DNA of 64,000 bases from a bacterium (lineage in GTDB: Bacteria > UBA8248 > JACPRG01 > G963555815): the NCBI GenBank assembly GCA_965218795.1, contig OZ244653.1, positions 544,001-608,000 of the forward strand, given 5' to 3'. How positions within the stretch are numbered: the first letter of the stretch is position 1; every line of letters begins with the position of its first letter. This document shows positions 1,472 through 11,861 of this stretch, in pieces. The notes beneath the pieces are model-generated. The model was not told where the DNA came from and searched no databases. It saw nothing but the letters and a program-made list of their open reading frames with translations. The position numbers were made by a program, and so were the translations under genes.

Positions 1472-2530
1472 CTAGAAACTGTATCTCAACGAAAGGACGA
1501 CCTTGGTTCCTTTGGATGCGATTAGGCTCACGCCCCGGAGATTCACCCTCGCGTCTTCATAGTTGAGGCCGAAATTCGCGGACAATCCCCGCGCCAGATC
1601 GTATTGGACACCCAGGGCGGCGGAAGTTTTCTCCTCTCCTTCGACCCGGCCGTAGTGGCCTTCGATGGAGAGGCTCACGACGCCGATTTTGATGTGAACG
1701 CCCGATGAGACGTACCATTGCTCGAGGTCCAGGCCGGGCGATGAGAGGGTTTCATAGCACACGCCGAGGTCGAACAAGGCGCTCCCGTAGATGAATTCGC
1801 CCACGCCGCTGACGGCTCTGGTGTCGAACCGCCTCGACCCGTCGGCAGAGGTGAATCCGGCCTCGGTATATCGTCCGGTCAGACGATAGTCCTTATCGCC
1901 GATCGGACGTTGATACATCGCACCAATATCGAAGTTCCCGTCCTCATCCACCACCGCACTCAGGACCCAGGGACCAAAACGGCCCAGATAGCCCCCGCTC
2001 CAGCCATTGAGCGAGCCGAATACGTCGTCGTAGGCCAGGGAGGCTGCTCCCGCCCCGCGCCTACGCCCGGTCTGGCCGCGAACGACCTCCGAAACATTGC
2101 CGCTCACCACCGCGCCCCAGACGCCCCCGATCGAGAGCGCGACGTCGTCCTCGTAATCGTCATCCACCCTGGAGGCGAAACCCGAGTCGGGGTTGTCTTG
2201 CGGGTCGCTGGCGTATCGGCCTGAATAGGTCAGCCTGACACGCCAGCGGTTGGCCAATTGCGTCTGGGCACCGACCTGAAAGCTGCCGTCAAGGCTCTCG
2301 TCCGTGTCGTCGCTTTCCGGACGAAAGGTCCATGCTCCGTCTACCATGCCTCTCAAGACGAGTGTTACGTCGCCGAATTCGGTGGCGAGAGGGGCTTCGA
2401 GCAGCGACATGTCGTCGTAATTGAGAAAGATTTCCTGCGCCCCGGCCGGCGCCGGTGCCCCGATGGCGCAGATGAAAAGCACCGCCGCCCAGAAAAGGCT
2501 AAACCTCGGAGTCGCATTTTGCGTCGCCAT
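1472..2530 (-). CDS. Outer-membrane beta-barrel porin-like protein
   Basis: 352 aa; Sec signal peptide (..APAGA|QE), amphipathic beta strands, C-terminal LRYSF BAM-type signature; 4 bp downstream of the haloperoxidase gene. Confidence 0.75.
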   Translation of the reverse strand: MATQNATPRFSLFWAAVLFICAIGAPAPAGAQEIFLNYDDMSLLEAPLATEFGDVTLVLRGMVDGAWTFRPESDDTDESLDGSFQVGAQTQLANRWRVRLTYSGRYASDPQDNPDSGFASRVDDDYEDDVALSIGGVWGAVVSGNVSEVVRGQTGRRRGAGAASLAYDDVFGSLNGWSGGYLGRFGPWVLSAVVDEDGNFDIGAMYQRPIGDKDYRLTGRYTEAGFTSADGSRRFDTRAVSGVGEFIYGSALFDLGVCYETLSSPGLDLEQWYVSSGVHIKIGVVSLSIEGHYGRVEGEEKTSAALGVQYDLARGLSANFGLNYEDARVNLRGVSLIASKGTKVVLSLRYSF

Positions 2531-2534
2531 GGTC

Positions 2535-3911
2535 TCAAGCCTTTTTCGGAAAAGTGGAGTGAAAGGCTTGGCGCGCGATGGCGCGACCGGCCGTCAATGC
2601 CTGTGTGTTATCGATTTCCCAATGAACGCCGCCGTAGATGCGGCTGAGCCCGTTTTCTTCCGCCATCTGGCGCAGGCTGCTCCAGCGCCTGATGACACCC
2701 CGAAGTTGCGGCCACAGCACCTCGTCGGGCGATCGACCCGAGAACGAAACGTCGTCGCGGCCATGGATCAGCGCGATCATCTCGGCAGCGGCGGCGGCGA
2801 ACGTGGAATGCCCCGAAGTGTAGGAGGGAAATTCTGGGGTCGGTATGTAGCTGCGCCAGTCGGCTTGCAGTTGCACGTACGGATCGGGGTTGGCGAATTT
2901 GGGCGCGCGGACGCGGATGGCGGTTTCCGGGCGGAGGATGTCGTGATGATACTTGCTATCCCACGCGCTGATGGAAGCGTCGCACTGCGTCATTCCGATC
3001 AGCGCGAAGGCGCGCGCGAGTTCAATGAAGCTCAGGCCGCGATCCTGGAGAATCTGCATGGCTATATAGATCATGTGCCCCGGTGGCGTGATACCCCAGG
3101 GGCCGTCCTCCCAGAAGAGCGCGATCTCCGACTCCGCAGCGGTTCGGATGGAGCTGTCCATCCCCCCGAGACGGCGGATGCGGTCGAATTCTTCGGCGAA
3201 TTCCGGACTTGCGGGATCGTAGAAACCGGAGGCGCGAAACTGCGAACCACTCCTCATCGTCCAGGGCTTGATTTGGCCATGCCCCGGAAACAGGCCGCGA
3301 TCGAAAGAGGCGAACGCCGGCCCCGGCGTCGCGCCGTAAAACGGACCGGTGGGCGCCCATCGCAACGAATCCGCGCGCCGCTTGTAACGGCCCAGATAAT
3401 AGTTCGCCTCGCTCGGTTCGGCGCCATCGTTTGTCCGTATCCCGAGCACCTTACGGGCGGCCGTGCGGCCCCATTGAACGCCGAGGGACTTCGCCTCGTT
3501 CCCGGGAAAGCGGCTCAAGAATCTGGCGCGCTCGAAGAGGGAGGGCTGCTGAAATGCTTCCGCCGCCGCGCTGGCGAAGGCCACGCCGTAGGCGACCTCG
3601 GGATCCGCGCCGCGCGGGCCGATGCCGATGCCGAAAGGTTCGTCATAAGTTTGGAGAATCCCGTTCGCGGCGAGAAATCCGGCGGCCATGGTCAGACTGT
3701 AATTGTATGCGGCCCGCGGAACGAGGATCCTCTGGTTCCGCACCTGTTGTAAGGCCGTATCCACCCAGTGGAAGACGGTGTTCTTGTTCTGGGGTTTTAG
3801 TATCTGGCTCGTATAGGAAGCCTTGTGTCCGTGGGGGCTGACGCACCCCGTCGCGAGGAGTGCGGCGGCGCCCGCCGCGTTCCTCAGAAACTGCCTTCTC
3901 GTGTAGGTCAT
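2535..3911 (-). CDS. Vanadium-dependent haloperoxidase-like protein (PAP2 superfamily), Tat-exported lipoprotein
   Basis: TRRQFL Tat motif and LATGC lipobox; K-x6-RP (KYHHDILRP), FPSYTSGHS, SRIYGGVHWEID, plus FWEDGP..TPPGH. Confidence 0.85.
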   Translation of the reverse strand: MTYTRRQFLRNAAGAAALLATGCVSPHGHKASYTSQILKPQNKNTVFHWVDTALQQVRNQRILVPRAAYNYSLTMAAGFLAANGILQTYDEPFGIGIGPRGADPEVAYGVAFASAAAEAFQQPSLFERARFLSRFPGNEAKSLGVQWGRTAARKVLGIRTNDGAEPSEANYYLGRYKRRADSLRWAPTGPFYGATPGPAFASFDRGLFPGHGQIKPWTMRSGSQFRASGFYDPASPEFAEEFDRIRRLGGMDSSIRTAAESEIALFWEDGPWGITPPGHMIYIAMQILQDRGLSFIELARAFALIGMTQCDASISAWDSKYHHDILRPETAIRVRAPKFANPDPYVQLQADWRSYIPTPEFPSYTSGHSTFAAAAAEMIALIHGRDDVSFSGRSPDEVLWPQLRGVIRRWSSLRQMAEENGLSRIYGGVHWEIDNTQALTAGRAIARQAFHSTFPKKA

Positions 3912-4091
3912 TGCTCGGGTCCTTTATATGAATACAATGAATGAACGGCTTTCCCGGCCTCGCTTATCGGCAAATATATTTTTTCTCCTTGACAGGCTCC
4001 TTATCAGCCCAAGGAAGCGAGCATCCCCAACTCGTGCAGCCCATTCCTGGGTCTGACCGCCAATCTGCCAGCAGAATTGGTGTGTAGCTCG

Positions 4092-4114
4092 CCGATAACT
4101 TCTACTTACGGGAT
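4092..4114 (-). other. lox-like recombination core site A (inverted relative to site B)
   Basis: CCGATAA-CTTCTAC-TTACGGGAT; 21/23 identical to the reverse complement of 4259-4281, including the 7-bp asymmetric spacer. Confidence 0.6.
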
Positions 4115-4230
4115 GCGAAGAGTCTCATTGCGCCGCTGAGATACCGCCTTGAGCCGTATGTGTGCCGCAACCGTGCAGGAAAAGGTGCGAAACGAGGCAC
4201 GGAACCCCTCCCAGGTTTTTAGGCTTACGC

Positions 4231-4260
4231 TTGACATGGCCATGAAATGTGTTATAGAAT
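4231..4260 (+). promoter_or_regulatory. Sigma70-type promoter between the two inverted core sites
   Basis: TTGACA (4231-4236), then TGnTATAGA extended -10 (4250-4258) or TAGAAT (4255-4260). Confidence 0.65.
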
Positions 4261-4282
4261 CCGATAAGTAGAAGTTATCGGA
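4260..4282 (+). other. lox-like recombination core site B
   Basis: Perfect 8-bp arms TCCGATAA / TTATCGGA around asymmetric spacer GTAGAAG; upstream of a Cre-like recombinase. Confidence 0.7.
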
Positions 4283-4365
4283 ATAGAGTAGAGCTATCGC
4301 TTTTTTTTACAATTTCCGTATACCAACGTGACATTTTCTTTGGGCGATTTCTTGTTACGGGCCTA

Positions 4366-4399
4366 TTTACATGACGTTAAGGTAACAACCTCATGTAAA
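4366..4399. promoter_or_regulatory. Inverted repeat, possible operator or accessory site
   Basis: TTTACATGA-N16-TCATGTAAA with an inner GTTA/TAAC dyad. Confidence 0.35.
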
Positions 4400-4467
4400 G
4401 AAAAGAGTGCTCAACTTATTCTTGCGCAACGGAATCGTCGGCGAAGTGACAAGGCATCGAGCAGAAA

Positions 4468-4674
4468 ATGAGCCTTGGAGAACTGCATGACAGGCTTGCA
4501 ATACTCAAAACATATTTCACTCGGGAGAAAAAACCCATCGCCCTCAAGCCTACGGATTTTCAACCCTCGAAAGCCGAAACGAAGAAGAAAGTTTGGATTC
4601 CGGCCACGTCAGAGAACATCGCGAAGGCAATGGTTCAGGACGTGAAGCTCAGATTCTCGTCCAGGACCGAATAG
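4468..4674 (+). CDS. Small hypothetical protein
   Basis: 68-aa ORF with ATG start, co-oriented upstream of the recombinase; contains FQPSKAE...IPATSENIAKAMV. Confidence 0.45.
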   Translation: MSLGELHDRLAILKTYFTREKKPIALKPTDFQPSKAETKKKVWIPATSENIAKAMVQDVKLRFSSRTE

Positions 4675-4747
4675 GGCGAATGTTACTTTGGTATGTGATT
4701 TCCCAATTTCTTGAGTCTTGGCCTCAACTCAGGCTGCGGAGTTCGCT

Positions 4748-5713
4748 ATGACAATGGAGACAACACCATCCGGCCCGACACAAGATACCGCTGTAACGAC
4801 GACGCCAGCGCCGGTTGACGCTTCCGCCCCAGCTCGCCCAATGCGGGGGGCTGCGGACTTGGTGCGGGCGTCGATTGCCGAAAATACGCGCCGGGCGTAC
4901 GAGCGGGCGTTGCGACAGTTCGAACGTTCGGAGTACTCGGAGACGGACGCCGGGGTAGCGGCGTACCTCGGCAGGCTGTACGAACAGGGGCGCTCCGCGG
5001 CCTGTGCCGCTATGGTAGTTGCAGCGTTGCGTTTCCGGGCCAAGCTGCATGGTTGGCCGTCTCCAGTGGGCGCGGCGGCGCGGCGGGTGTTGGCCGGGTT
5101 CCGGCGTCTGGCCGCGGGGCGGGGCCGCGGCAAGGTGGTCGGGGTCCGCTGGGAGCAGGCGGACCGGGCGGCGGCAATGGCCGAACAGCCGGGGGAGCTG
5201 GCCGGGCTGCGGGACGCCGCGATTATGGCGGTAGCGAGTGACGCGCTGCTCAGGGTGTCGGAGGTCGCGGCTTTGGACGTGCCGGACGTGAATCTAGCGG
5301 AGCAAACGGTGTTGATCCGACGCAGTAAGACAGATCAGGAAGGCAAGGGCGTGGTGCAATACCTGGGGAAGCCGACAGCGGAGCGTATTCGGGTCTGGCT
5401 GCTGCACTCCGGTCTGACGGAAGGGGCATTATTCCGGCCCGTCAACAAATCGGGTCGAGTGCAGGACGGGCGCCTGACGGTCAGGAGCATCCGACGCATT
5501 ATCACCCAGTGGGCCAGGGCCGCCGGGGTGGACGGTCGGGTCAGCGGACACAGCCTGCGCGTAGGCAGTGCGCAGAGCCTGGCAACTGCCGGGGCCTCCC
5601 TGGTCGAGATGCAGATTGCCGGGCGCTGGCGGTCGCCGGCCATGCCAGGGCGTTACGCGCAAGGGCAACTGGCAAAACAAGGAGCCGTGGCAAGACTCCG
5701 GTATGGCTCATGA
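4748..5713 (+). CDS. Cre-like tyrosine recombinase
   Basis: AENTRRAY N-terminal domain; LRDAAI..LLRVSE (R), RRSKTDQ (K), SGHSLRVG (HxxR), GRWRS..MPGRY (W and Y as in Cre). Start uncertain (4718/4748/4841). Confidence 0.92.
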   Translation: MTMETTPSGPTQDTAVTTTPAPVDASAPARPMRGAADLVRASIAENTRRAYERALRQFERSEYSETDAGVAAYLGRLYEQGRSAACAAMVVAALRFRAKLHGWPSPVGAAARRVLAGFRRLAAGRGRGKVVGVRWEQADRAAAMAEQPGELAGLRDAAIMAVASDALLRVSEVAALDVPDVNLAEQTVLIRRSKTDQEGKGVVQYLGKPTAERIRVWLLHSGLTEGALFRPVNKSGRVQDGRLTVRSIRRIITQWARAAGVDGRVSGHSLRVGSAQSLATAGASLVEMQIAGRWRSPAMPGRYAQGQLAKQGAVARLRYGS

Positions 5714-5919
5714 GTTCGACTTTGTACAATCCGCCTCGTCAAATCCGGGATGATCTGTTTTTTCGACGGTTCGTCGAGCACCACGGCCAGCCGTCCGTTC
5801 AATGAACCAAGAATCCATCGATTAAAGCGCGCTTTTCGGGTTTAAACCGAGAAGTGACCCTCCCCCTGGTTTAGGGCCAAGTGGGTTGAGAGTTTTCGGT
5901 TGTGATCATAGAGCGAAGC

Positions 5920-6263
5920 TGCCCGTGTTGCCGGGTAGGCGGCCGGTGCTTTGTACCAACGCCACCTCTGGCGTTCGGAAGGCTTCCACGGCGAGGCGAA
6001 GCTCTGGCACGGCCTCGGGCGCGCGGTCCGGCGCGGTCTCGACAACATGAAGGTCCAGGCCTACATGACGGCCGCGGCGATCAATCTCAAGCGGCTTGGG
6101 GCCGCCCTTGTTGCCATCCTATTGGCCAATTGGACGGCCCGCGTTGCCGGACAAGAGCCGCTGCATGTCCATCACGCCCACACACCCCGAACAGACTTGC
6201 GGGCGGCCGCCGCCACGTGATCCTGCATGCGCCCGGTCTCGAAACCGGCTTTTTCAACAGCCC
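5920..6263 (+). mobile_element. IS1182-family remnant: transposase C-terminus and right terminal repeat
   Basis: YQRHLWRSEGFHGEAKLWHGLGRAVRRGLDNMKVQAYMTAAAINLKRL, followed by GCTTTTTCAACAGCCC (6248-6263). Confidence 0.75.
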
Positions 6264-9178: not shown

Positions 9179-10417
9179 ATGCGCCAACCGACCAAACCGA
9201 AGCGGCTCTATATCGATTTCGATGGTTTTTTCGCGTCCTGCGAGGAGCAGGCGGACCCCGGCCTGCACGGCCGCCCCGTTGGAGTCATACCGTTTGCGGG
9301 GGCGCGCAACAGTTGCGTGATCGCTGCAAACGCAGCGGCCAAGAGGTTCGGCGTCACGACCGGGACTTCAATCGCCGAGGCGCGCCGGTTGTGCCCCCGG
9401 ATAGCTCTCCCGCCGCAGCGGCCGGATCTGTACGTCCGGATCCACCACCGGATCGTGGCTGCGGTGCTCTCCGTGTTGCCGCTTGATGTCGTTTGCTCGA
9501 TCGACGAGTGCGCCGCCGTTCTGGGGAATCGGGACTGCCCTGAAGAGATCGCGGGAAGGATCAAGAGCCGCGTGCGGGCAGCAGTCGGGGAACGCATCAC
9601 CTGCTCCATCGGCTGTGCGCCCAACAGGTGGCTCGCCAAGATCGCCGCGGGCCTGGAAAAGCCGGACGGTCTGACGGTGCTGCTTCCCGGCGACCTGCCG
9701 GGTCCTCTGCTCCACCTCGGGCTGGAGGCGTTGCCCGGGGTCGGCAGGCGCATACGCGTACGTTTGAAGCGGAGTGGGATAACGACGATCGAGGACATTT
9801 GGAACAGTGAGCCCGGGCGGCTGAGCTCAGTCTGGGGCAATGTGACCGGCGCGCGCTTTTGGTACGCGCTCCACGGCTACGCCGTGGAACCGCCGGTGAC
9901 GCAACGCGGCTCGATCGGCCACGGCCGGGTCCTGCCTCCAGGGGAGCGCAACGCGCAGTCCGCCCGGCCGATGGCTAGGCAACTGGTGGTGAAGGCGGCC
10001 CGGCGCCTGCGCCGGGAGGGGTTCCTCGCCCGGAGGCTCACCCTGTCGGCCGAGTGTCTCGATGCGCCCTCCTGGACGGCCTCGACGGTCGTCGCAAGAG
10101 CGAACGATGATCTGACCTGCCTCGACGCCATCTCGACGCTCTGGGCCGCACTCACCACGGCGCGGAGCCGGGCCACCCTGTTCCGGATCGCCGTATCGTT
10201 CGACCGCTTCATCCCGTCGGATGAAGCGCAGCTCGAACTGCCTCTTGAAAAGCCGGACGACAGGCGCCGGCTGACAAGGCTGAGCGCCGCCGTCGATTCG
10301 ATCAATGGCCGCTATGCGCGCACCGTCGTCGGCTACGGCGGGTGTGCTCCTCCGGGCGGCTACGCGGGGGCCAAGATTGCGTACGGCCGCGTTCCTCAAC
10401 TGGAGGATTTCCAGTAG
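9179..10417 (+). CDS. Y-family DNA polymerase (DinB/UmuC-like)
   Basis: YIDFDGFFASCE, SIDE catalytic motif, LAKIAAGLEKPDG, HhH LPGVG, C-terminal QLELPL clamp-binding-like motif. Confidence 0.92.
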   Translation: MRQPTKPKRLYIDFDGFFASCEEQADPGLHGRPVGVIPFAGARNSCVIAANAAAKRFGVTTGTSIAEARRLCPRIALPPQRPDLYVRIHHRIVAAVLSVLPLDVVCSIDECAAVLGNRDCPEEIAGRIKSRVRAAVGERITCSIGCAPNRWLAKIAAGLEKPDGLTVLLPGDLPGPLLHLGLEALPGVGRRIRVRLKRSGITTIEDIWNSEPGRLSSVWGNVTGARFWYALHGYAVEPPVTQRGSIGHGRVLPPGERNAQSARPMARQLVVKAARRLRREGFLARRLTLSAECLDAPSWTASTVVARANDDLTCLDAISTLWAALTTARSRATLFRIAVSFDRFIPSDEAQLELPLEKPDDRRRLTRLSAAVDSINGRYARTVVGYGGCAPPGGYAGAKIAYGRVPQLEDFQ

Positions 10418-10771: not shown

Positions 10772-11038
10772 ATGAAGCGCAAGCGATTCTCGGTTGAGCA
10801 GATCGTGGCAGCAGTGAAGCAACACGATCTCGGTGTTTCGGCGACCGACATTGCCCGCAAGTTAGGCATTGCGGAGCAGACCTTTTACCGCTGGAAGAGG
10901 CAGTATGGCGGCCTGGAGGCGGCCGAGGTCCGAGAACTGAAGCAGTTGCGGGAGGAAAACGCCCGGCTCAAGAGGCTGGTAGCCGATCTCAGCCTCGACA
11001 AGGTGATGCTGCAGGAGGTCGCCTCAAAAAAATGGTAG
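10772..11038 (+). CDS. IS3 transposase OrfA
   Basis: MKRKRFSVEQI..TFYRWKRQYGG..LREENARLKRLVADLSLDK. Confidence 0.9.
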   Translation: MKRKRFSVEQIVAAVKQHDLGVSATDIARKLGIAEQTFYRWKRQYGGLEAAEVRELKQLREENARLKRLVADLSLDKVMLQEVASKKW

Positions 11039-11861
11039 GCGCATCGCAACGCCGGTCGGCGGTGCGCCATCTGCAGCGGTGCTATTCGGTCAGCGAGCGA
11101 CGCGGCTGCGAGGTCACCGGCACCCATCGCAGCACGCACCGGTACCAGTCGGTGCGGCCCTGCCAGGCGGCGCTACGGCGGAAGGTCCGAGATCTGGCGC
11201 AAAGCCGGATACGCTACGGCTACAAGCGTGTCCATATCCTGCTGAGGCGTGAGGGCATTCACGTCAACAAAAAGCGCGTCTATCGCCTGTATTGTGAGGA
11301 AGGCCTACAGATTCGGGCCCGGCGTCGTCGACGGCCGCCCCGCACCAGACCGCAGGCGCCGAACGTGGCCTGGAGCATGGACTTTGTCAGCGATCAGACA
11401 GCGAGCGGAAAACGCTTTCGGGCGCTCACCGTGGTCGACCTCTTCACCCGCGAGTGTCTGGCGGTTGAACCCGGCCAGAGCCTGGGGGGTGCCGAAGTGG
11501 TCGACATTCTCAGCCGGATTGCCATGCAACGGAGCACACCGAAGCGGATCCACTGCGACAAAGTGGCAGTGAGTTCGCTGGCCGTCTGGTCGATCTTTGG
11601 GCCTACGCCAACGGCGTAGTGATGGAATATTCCCGGCCAGGAAAGCCGACCGACAACGCCTGGATTGAGTCGTTCAACGGCACGCTGCGGGACGAATGCC
11701 TGAATGTGCACTGGTTCGACGATTTGACGGACGCACGGAGGAAGTTGCAAGCTTGGCAGCGAGAGTACAATGAGACTCGACCTCACAGGTCTCTCAATGA
11801 ACTCTCTCCCCAGCAATTCAAGGCCCTTTGGGCCCAACAACGTCAGAAATTCACTGACTGA
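11032..11861 (+). pseudogene. IS3 transposase OrfB, frameshifted
   Basis: RYGYKR..WSMDFVSD..VVDLFTRECL; the DNGSEF motif is broken; PGKPTDNAWIESFNG continues in another frame. Confidence 0.85.

Follow-up and report, generated by a model that had tools for sequence, protein, structure and literature searches.

Promoter inversion is a classic bet-hedging device, and nearly all work on it, to our knowledge, concerns gut and pathogenic bacteria. Secreted and surface proteins are the usual targets of phase variation. In the fimS switch of Escherichia coli, a short promoter segment with short inverted repeats is flipped by the adjacent tyrosine recombinases FimB and FimE, which turns the neighbouring surface-protein operon on or off. 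Promoters are also inverted by tyrosine recombinases in Bacteroides, where the enzymes are presumably those named Tsr. Here, we describe a locus of related design in a window of 64,000 nucleotides (positions 544,001 to 608,000 of contig OZ244653.1) from the genome of an uncultivated bacterium. The window, to which all coordinates below refer unless stated otherwise, is the whole stretch of DNA that was analysed. The locus lies between the gene of a Cre-like tyrosine recombinase and a divergent operon that starts with a gene of the vanadium-dependent haloperoxidase family. As judged from sequence comparisons, the stretch 4091-4282, bounded by the inverted sites A and B, is very probably a promoter inversion switch (inverton) that controls the haloperoxidase operon.

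The closest described systems share different features with the locus. Like fimS, the ipuS element of uropathogenic E. coli is a short promoter segment with short inverted repeats, and its adjacent tyrosine recombinase IpuA flips it to switch a neighbouring surface-protein operon on or off, according to the cited passages of its description (PMC6083910); the same parts are found here. The likeness to Cre/loxP, Vika/vox, Nigri/nox and Panto/pox (PMC3553980, PMC4957104 and PMC11260471) is in the recombination site, in which inverted arms surround an asymmetric spacer. The spacer sets the orientation of the site and has to match between partner sites, as the spacer covariation shows for the loci analysed here. 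The invertible promoters of Bacteroides and the RecV switches of Clostridioides difficile are likewise inverted by tyrosine recombinases and control surface structures, with many invertible promoters per genome (passages of PMC10403206, PMC9286219 and PMC8890394). Elements of the same class have been predicted across many phyla, including in marine metagenomes, by the genome-wide inverton surveys PhaseFinder and DeepInverton, although the passages of PMC11602134 that were consulted name neither the recombinase clade described here nor spacer covariation.

Paired sites, promoter and flipped copies

Sites A and B are 23 bp long each, are composed of 8-bp arms and a 7-bp spacer, and are inverted relative to each other. 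The arms of site B form a perfect 8-bp palindrome around an asymmetric 7-nucleotide spacer, and its sequence is exactly that given in the original prediction, an earlier annotation of this DNA made from its letters. The identical, inverted spacer that had been claimed for site A is also present, but the coordinates 4092-4114 have to be corrected. With a repeat finder, 4092-4114 is matched to 4259-4281 at 21 of 23 positions, whereas in the register of arms and spacer the site starts one base further to the left and matches the reverse complement of site B at 20 of 23 positions. Sites A and B are the sole matches to a degenerate site pattern in the window with up to three mismatches (0.01 expected from shuffled sequences). 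They are also the sole matches with up to five substitutions in the whole genome, which is a single contig of 5,174,045 bp with a GC content of 60.5%.

The predicted near-consensus promoter between the sites, aimed at the recombinase, was recovered by a promoter scan of 3800-4800, in which 4231-4260 is the sole strong sigma-70-like promoter. It consists of the -35 element TTGACA (4231-4236) and the extended -10 element TGnTATAGA (4250-4258, with the -10 hexamer at 4253-4258). The alternative -10 element proposed by the scanner is TAGAAT (4255-4260), and 11 of 12 consensus positions are matched. The -10 element abuts site B, and transcription is predicted to start inside the site. No promoter-like site was found in 3800-4800 on the minus strand.

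Homologues of the recombinase were searched for in 61 genomes (this genome, G000, and 60 relatives) and are present in 23. They occur mostly in one genus (g7, 17 of the 23 genomes), which belongs to another family of the same class, and have identities of 73-77%. Up to 12-14 recombinase matches were found in a single genome, fragments included. The 980 nucleotides upstream of 12 related genes were aligned with the window by position, without regard to sites or spacers. Both sites and the promoter are aligned, and a homologue of site A is present in all 12 related loci. The two spacers are reverse complements of each other in 13 of the 13 sequences, although they vary between the loci. The position of the promoter beside site B is kept in related loci.

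A larger table was assembled by fetching every remaining full-length recombinase match of the 61-genome search. Its 34 loci are that of the window, 32 others drawn from 13 related genomes, and L043, which comes from a metagenome-assembled genome (MAG) titled Candidatus Binatia. In each of the 34, the sites of the pair are 158-179 bp apart, and their spacers are reverse complements of each other. In the 21 loci that were not part of the 13-sequence alignment, the pair was located by requiring a spacer match, which shows only that a pair exists where expected; the estimated chance of such a pair at the expected place is ~0.002 per locus. The table holds 18 distinct spacers, none of which is palindromic, and spacers A and B from different loci match in 46 of 1122 comparisons. 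The arms of the window score 29 of 32 against the consensus and are among the best of the 34 loci. Among the 38 loci whose recombinase homologue has at least 60% identity, 34 keep the paired inverted sites that the original prediction proposed to look for in homologues.

In four of the 34 loci (L012 of genome G041, L018 of G030, L037 of G020 and L039 of G036), the segment is flipped and its promoter is aimed at the left gene. Compared to five relatives, the four flipped segments score 0.69-0.95 when reverse-complemented (best value 0.79-0.95 for each) and 0.53-0.64 when compared directly; the segment of the window scores 0.63-0.67 against relatives in the same orientation and 0.53-0.56 when flipped. 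The inner arms of the flipped loci are exchanged exactly as predicted for strand exchange within the spacer. The flipped L012 has the pair GCCGCTAA-TTATTG-TTATCAGA and TCCCGTAA-CAATAA-TTATCAGA, and the unflipped L009 has the pair GCCGCTAA-TTATTG-TTACGGGA and TCTGATAA-CAATAA-TTATCGGA. Genome G020 contains both L037 and its paralogue L031, which have a spacer in common and 95% identity, with their segments in opposite orientations. By these comparisons, the flipped copies are at least four separate inversion events. The flipped copies and the covariation of the spacers show that recombination between sites A and B takes place in this family. Together with the layout of 34 of the 38 loci, they support the predicted inversion of a promoter by a tyrosine recombinase between the recombinase gene and a divergent operon.

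In the proposed mechanism, the Cre-like recombinase would bind the 8-bp arms of sites A and B and pair the sites, and strands would be exchanged within the identical 7-nucleotide spacers. Since these spacers are asymmetric and point in opposite directions, the ~170 bp between them would flip. In the present orientation, the promoter would fire rightwards from inside site B to the recombinase gene. The left operon would be off, since the only strong promoter faces right and none is recognizable for the operon. After inversion, the promoter would stand against site A and fire leftwards through a leader of ~195 nucleotides into the haloperoxidase and barrel-like genes, which would be the on state. 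We infer that this particular copy still flips, that the segment promoter is the only promoter of the operon, and that the adjacent recombinase is the responsible enzyme.

Searches further afield gave fewer pairs. Among 44 more distant homologous loci, an inverted pair matching at 17 or more of 20 positions lies upstream in seven and downstream in none, in a scan that short 12-nucleotide cores would escape. A protein search of metagenome contigs yielded one close relative, L126 (77% identity), which is without a switch. Six further metagenome relatives with 45-56% identity have no detectable pair at the thresholds used, and an exact 24-nucleotide pattern that runs from the left flank through the outer arm of site A into its spacer was not found in the metagenome contigs. 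Three other loci (L057, L058 and L060, ~2490-2796), from MAGs of Latescibacterota, encode recombinases of 53-54% identity and have a 280-bp version of the switch with TTTCCGATAA arms and with spacers that covary across the three. In some genomes, another paralogue of the recombinase, with 63-67% identity to the query, stands directly behind the first, with one switch ahead of the pair (G017:C20:368137-370056, G023:C134:2282-4276 and G039:C235:3844-5881).

Recombinase, haloperoxidase operon and leaders

Table 1. Positions of the sites, genes and intervening segments of the locus in the window.
Feature	Position	Strand	Description
Barrel-like protein, second operon gene	1472-2530	-	352 amino acids; signal peptide; C-terminal ...LRYSF; 4 nucleotides after the haloperoxidase stop
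Vanadium-dependent haloperoxidase family protein	2535-3911	-	458 amino acids; twin-arginine signal; first gene of the operon
Fixed leader, left gene to site A	3912-4090	-	Holds half site CTTATCGGC at 3963-3971
Site A, left inverted repeat	4091-4113	.	Outer arm GCCGATAA 4091-4098, spacer CTTCTAC 4099-4105, inner arm TTACGGGA 4106-4113
Invertible segment interior	4114-4259	+	Promoter at the right end, now aimed at the recombinase
Site B, right inverted repeat	4260-4282	.	Inner arm TCCGATAA 4260-4267, spacer GTAGAAG 4268-4274, outer arm TTATCGGA 4275-4282
Low-GC leader to the recombinase gene	4283-4747	+	Includes orphan 68-amino-acid reading frame 4468-4674
Cre-like tyrosine recombinase	4748-5713	+	Probable ATG start 4748, 321 amino acids; start codon aligned with relatives

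The recombinase belongs to the Phage_integrase family (PF00589, E-value 4.8e-19), and its best solved relatives are Cre structures (E-value 2.2e-12, 50 bits). The longest version of its reading frame starts at TTG 4718 and encodes 331 amino acids (4718-5713). The gene is intact and present as a single copy in the genome. The catalytic residues R-K-H-R-W-Y are all aligned with those of Cre, in the motifs LLR, SKT, GHSLR, GRW and GRY at positions 177-315; for the aligned catalytic positions we assume the customary residue numbers of Cre. The scores for the XerC and XerD models (50.7 against a cut-off of 335, and 44 against 330) are far below the cut-offs. The FimB/FimE-type invertase model of NCBIfam (NF007371, tyrosine-type DNA invertase) gives 20 bits against a cut-off of 222, and on model scores the recombinase clade is not of the FimB/FimE type.

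The left gene encodes a member of the vanadium haloperoxidase family, as indicated by its matches, with putative halogenating activity. Its product matches the vanadium-dependent haloperoxidase of PDB entry 4cit with an E-value of 2.6e-20 and vanadium chloroperoxidases with 1e-10. The Pfam model PAP2 scores 33.2 bits against a cut-off of 27.2, whereas VCPO_2nd remains below its cut-off (21.5 against 27), and the model of the twin-arginine (TAT) signal scores 17.7 bits against 16.7. The translation contains the motifs KxxxxxxRP, SGHS and RxxxGxH, which are common to haloperoxidases and acid phosphatases. The gene is single-copy in the genome, and its ATG is preceded by AAGGA. The predicted haloperoxidase-porin operon is borne out by the 4cit and PAP2 matches in its first part. 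The 352-amino-acid product of the second gene, which has no Pfam or NCBIfam match, may be a porin or outer-membrane beta-barrel, as its sequence features suggest.

The divergent left genes of related loci encode secreted or surface proteins, among them long lipoproteins without a family match, cadherin-like or fn3 proteins, and an RTX-repeat protein. Genes of TonB-dependent receptors stand beside a 280-bp version of the switch in MAGs of Latescibacterota. The sole other switch linked to a haloperoxidase gene is that of G033 (L123 5552-6319), a genome of another family. Its haloperoxidase gene is 82% identical in nucleotides and consists of the first 251 of the 458 codons only, and the encoded protein is 85% identical to that of the window. 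The comparison suggests that the region was transferred and then truncated.

Once the promoter faces left, the fixed leader would form most of a 5' untranslated region of ~195 nucleotides. Its part 3912-3987 is 82% identical in the G033 locus. The leader contains the extra half site CTTATCGGC, which exists as predicted. The motif CCGATAA occurs 438 times in the genome, which corresponds to ~0.015 expected occurrences in the 179 bp of the leader by a post hoc estimate. At the place aligned with the half site, the G033 locus has GC-TATCACC, in which the GATA core is retained and which is similar to the TGATAA arms of that locus. The half site, seen in these two sequences only, may be an accessory binding site. 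No Rfam match was found in 3700-4900, and no intrinsic terminator was scored in 3800-4800. The segments of relatives contain a terminator-like hairpin followed by a T-run on the strand opposite to the promoter (L045 2754-2771 and L009 1231-1248, both on the minus strand). The hairpin would block read-through into the gene that is not faced by the promoter.

On the other side of the switch, relatives have a conserved element TTGGAA-N16-TATACT ahead of the recombinase gene and outside the segment, which was not scored in the window. Because this second promoter-like element is outside the segment, the supply of recombinase need not depend on orientation, and it is uncertain whether the switching is self-limiting, as had been proposed in the original prediction. 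The low-GC leader to the recombinase gene is mostly absent from related loci; it appears as an insertion in the alignment with the 12 relatives and is unique in the genome. The 68-amino-acid reading frame within it was rejected as a supported gene, since it matches no Pfam or NCBIfam family and has no counterpart elsewhere in the genome or in the loci that were fetched. A 16-nucleotide inverted repeat (88%, 4320-4335 and 4679-4694) brackets the low-GC stretch with the orphan reading frame. An origin of 4320-4694 from a miniature inverted-repeat transposable element was considered on account of the repeats and discarded, as the stretch is unique in the genome.

In many related loci, the recombinase gene is directly followed by a convergent gene of a 239-amino-acid excisionase-type HTH_17 protein (L045 3977-4696, minus strand). 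The gene sits in a shared stretch of ~1-1.3 kb with 90-95% identity between related loci. The present genome has four or five HTH_17 homologues (four with 62-63% identity and one with 41%). One of them is located at the far end of the left operon, at 1-144, and runs off the left end of the window (genome positions 543422-544144). A few kilobases to the right of the switch are a gene of a Y-family DNA polymerase with IMS domains (9179-10417) and a fragment of an IS3-type transposase (HTH_21 and rve, 11032-11619).

Weighing inversion against alternative explanations

The state of the locus in the population of this organism was assessed from four public runs (X1-X4), which contain 87-97% of sampled words of 3000-6000. 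The runs were examined as assembled (Logan) contigs, in which minor variants are dropped. The majority state is that with the promoter directed towards the recombinase, because contigs bridge the region in the reference orientation in X1 (3658-5892, no differences), X2 (3658-4390) and X3 (3807-4604, one difference). The difference in X3 is G to A at 4160. The contigs of X4 break inside the segment (4144-4338), with a gap at 4144-4187 and a 151-nucleotide piece of depth 2.7 beside depths of 6.7 and 10.3; the break is probably caused by low depth or by a variant. At 5911, the contigs of all four runs have the same 36 extra letters.

Several results count against a working switch at this locus. 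Neither the flipped form nor an inversion joint was seen in the contigs of X1-X4, which omit minor variants. The spacers of the window are 7 nucleotides long, compared to 6 nucleotides in all relatives. Of the 34 loci, 30 have a promoter that is directed at the recombinase gene, which could mean that switching is rare. Four of the 38 loci (L016, L053, L056 and L126, with recombinase identities of 60-82%) are without a site pair, so that members of the recombinase clade also occur without a switch; L056 has a different inverted repeat, which matches at 19 of 20 positions with 253 bp between its halves. The inner arm of site A deviates from the arm consensus at two positions. Because six related loci (L008, L009, L015, L030, L032 and L038) have exactly TTACGGGA in the same place, as the inner arm of their site A, the deviation is, on this comparison, a conserved asymmetry. 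It may bias the direction of inversion.

Some of these results would also fit a fossil switch, a descendant of a working inverton in a copy that no longer flips, with the operon permanently off or run by an unrecognized promoter. In addition to the single orientation in the contigs of three of the four runs and the 7-nucleotide spacer, which is unique among the 34 loci, ~230-370 bp that were not found in relatives separate site B from the recombinase gene. Decay of the module does occur, as is evident from L018, whose flipped segment lies next to a recombinase gene broken by stop codons. However, the recombinase reading frame of the window is intact and has all six catalytic positions, the spacers are identical at seven of seven positions, and the arms are close to the consensus. 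The spacers would drift apart if neither selection nor recombination kept them alike, and we consider a fossil switch unlikely. A function of the sites as operators, at which the recombinase or a repressor would loop the DNA and autoregulate the recombinase promoter with no inversion, is hardly credible. The predicted transcription start lies within site B, and the -10 element is directly next to it, so that a bound protein would repress, and binding with repression may well exist side by side with inversion. Yet operators have no need of spacers that are matched within a locus and differ between loci in 18 variants, and looping fails to explain four loci in which the whole segment is reversed and the arms are exchanged.

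The sites could also belong to a mobile element, either for resolution of the res or dif-like type or as attachment sites for integration and excision. This reading agrees with the multiple copies of the recombinase in related genomes, with the inclusion of ~1-1.3 kb of downstream sequence and its excisionase-type gene in the shared module, and with the recurrence, at 82% nucleotide identity, of the 5' half of the haloperoxidase gene together with the switch in another family. Furthermore, the similarity of L126 (1380-1500) to L043 (2860-2960) breaks off where the outer arm of site B lies, which would fit a rearrangement with an end at this position. Integration, excision and resolution use direct sites, whereas the asymmetric spacers are inverted in 34 of the 34 loci. 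Both sites are on one side of the recombinase gene and 170 bp apart, and hence cannot be the ends of an element. The similarity of paralogous copies ends 70-180 bp to the left of site A and not at the site, and the XerC and XerD scores also argue against this reading, which is very improbable; the module may spread by some other route. The original prediction had added the caveat that site A, in view of its degenerate inner arm, might be an accessory site of a res-type site. This finds no support, given the conservation of TTACGGGA in six relatives and the inverted, not direct, arrangement of the sites.

Comparison with known switches

Promoter inversion at this locus may be one instance of a broader phenomenon. 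The switch in the window may belong to a large and so far undescribed family of modules that are complete in themselves. Each would combine a Cre-like recombinase with an invertible promoter between lox-like sites of 22-23 bp, and the spacers would have diversified so that paralogues in the same genome stay apart. Such modules would be spread over several phyla and phase-vary surface or secreted proteins, in this case an extracellular halogenating enzyme. Spacer diversification would then be a natural counterpart of engineered heterospecific lox sites. We put this wider proposal forward as tentative, a little short of probable. Record titles place homologous loci in Binatia and Latescibacterota, and possibly in Poribacteria, Gemmatimonadota and Gammaproteobacteria. 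The paralogous loci are ~80-96% identical in DNA; genome G036 has seven distinct spacers among eight loci and G020 has four among six. Three pairs of loci from the same genome share a spacer, which counts against insulation by spacers.

A full-text literature search found no link of haloperoxidases with phase variation, and further searches turned up no paper that connects invertible promoters with sponge or symbiont lineages, with Binatia, with Cre-like recombinases or with haloperoxidases. The locus brings promoter inversion to an uncultivated lineage, with a recombinase closest to Cre and not to FimB/FimE. If true, promoter inversion would gain a new trait, the phase variation of halogenation or of oxidative chemistry at the cell surface. 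The natural series of close recombinases with short sites that differ mainly in the spacer may interest builders of orthogonal recombinase tools. The two-part signature of spacer covariation within a locus and flipped paralogues could be used to find working invertons in assemblies without raw reads.

Compared with fimS and ipuS, the present locus differs in the structure of its sites, each of which is a lox-like palindrome (8-7-8), and in the direction of the promoter, which faces the recombinase gene in the off state. The recombinase is of another family than FimB and FimE, and its similarity to Cre is low (50 bits). The sites of 22-23 bp, with arms of ~8 bp and spacers of 6-7 nucleotides, are shorter than loxP, which is 34 bp long (13-8-13). 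The Cre systems serve phage or plasmid maintenance, whereas here the recombinase is part of a chromosomal gene switch. Moreover, many modules are present per genome, with eight and six switch loci tabulated in two genomes and spacers that mostly differ. In the passages cited above, the Bacteroides and RecV systems have one or few recombinases that act on many sites with a shared repeat; in contrast, almost every switch described here has its own recombinase and mostly its own spacer. The hosts are uncultivated groups known from MAGs. As a probable inverton, the locus would be functionally the same device as the switches of fimS with FimB/FimE, ipuS, Bacteroides and RecV, and what sets it apart is the recombinase clade, which is nearest to Cre, and the short lox-like sites (8-6/7-8).

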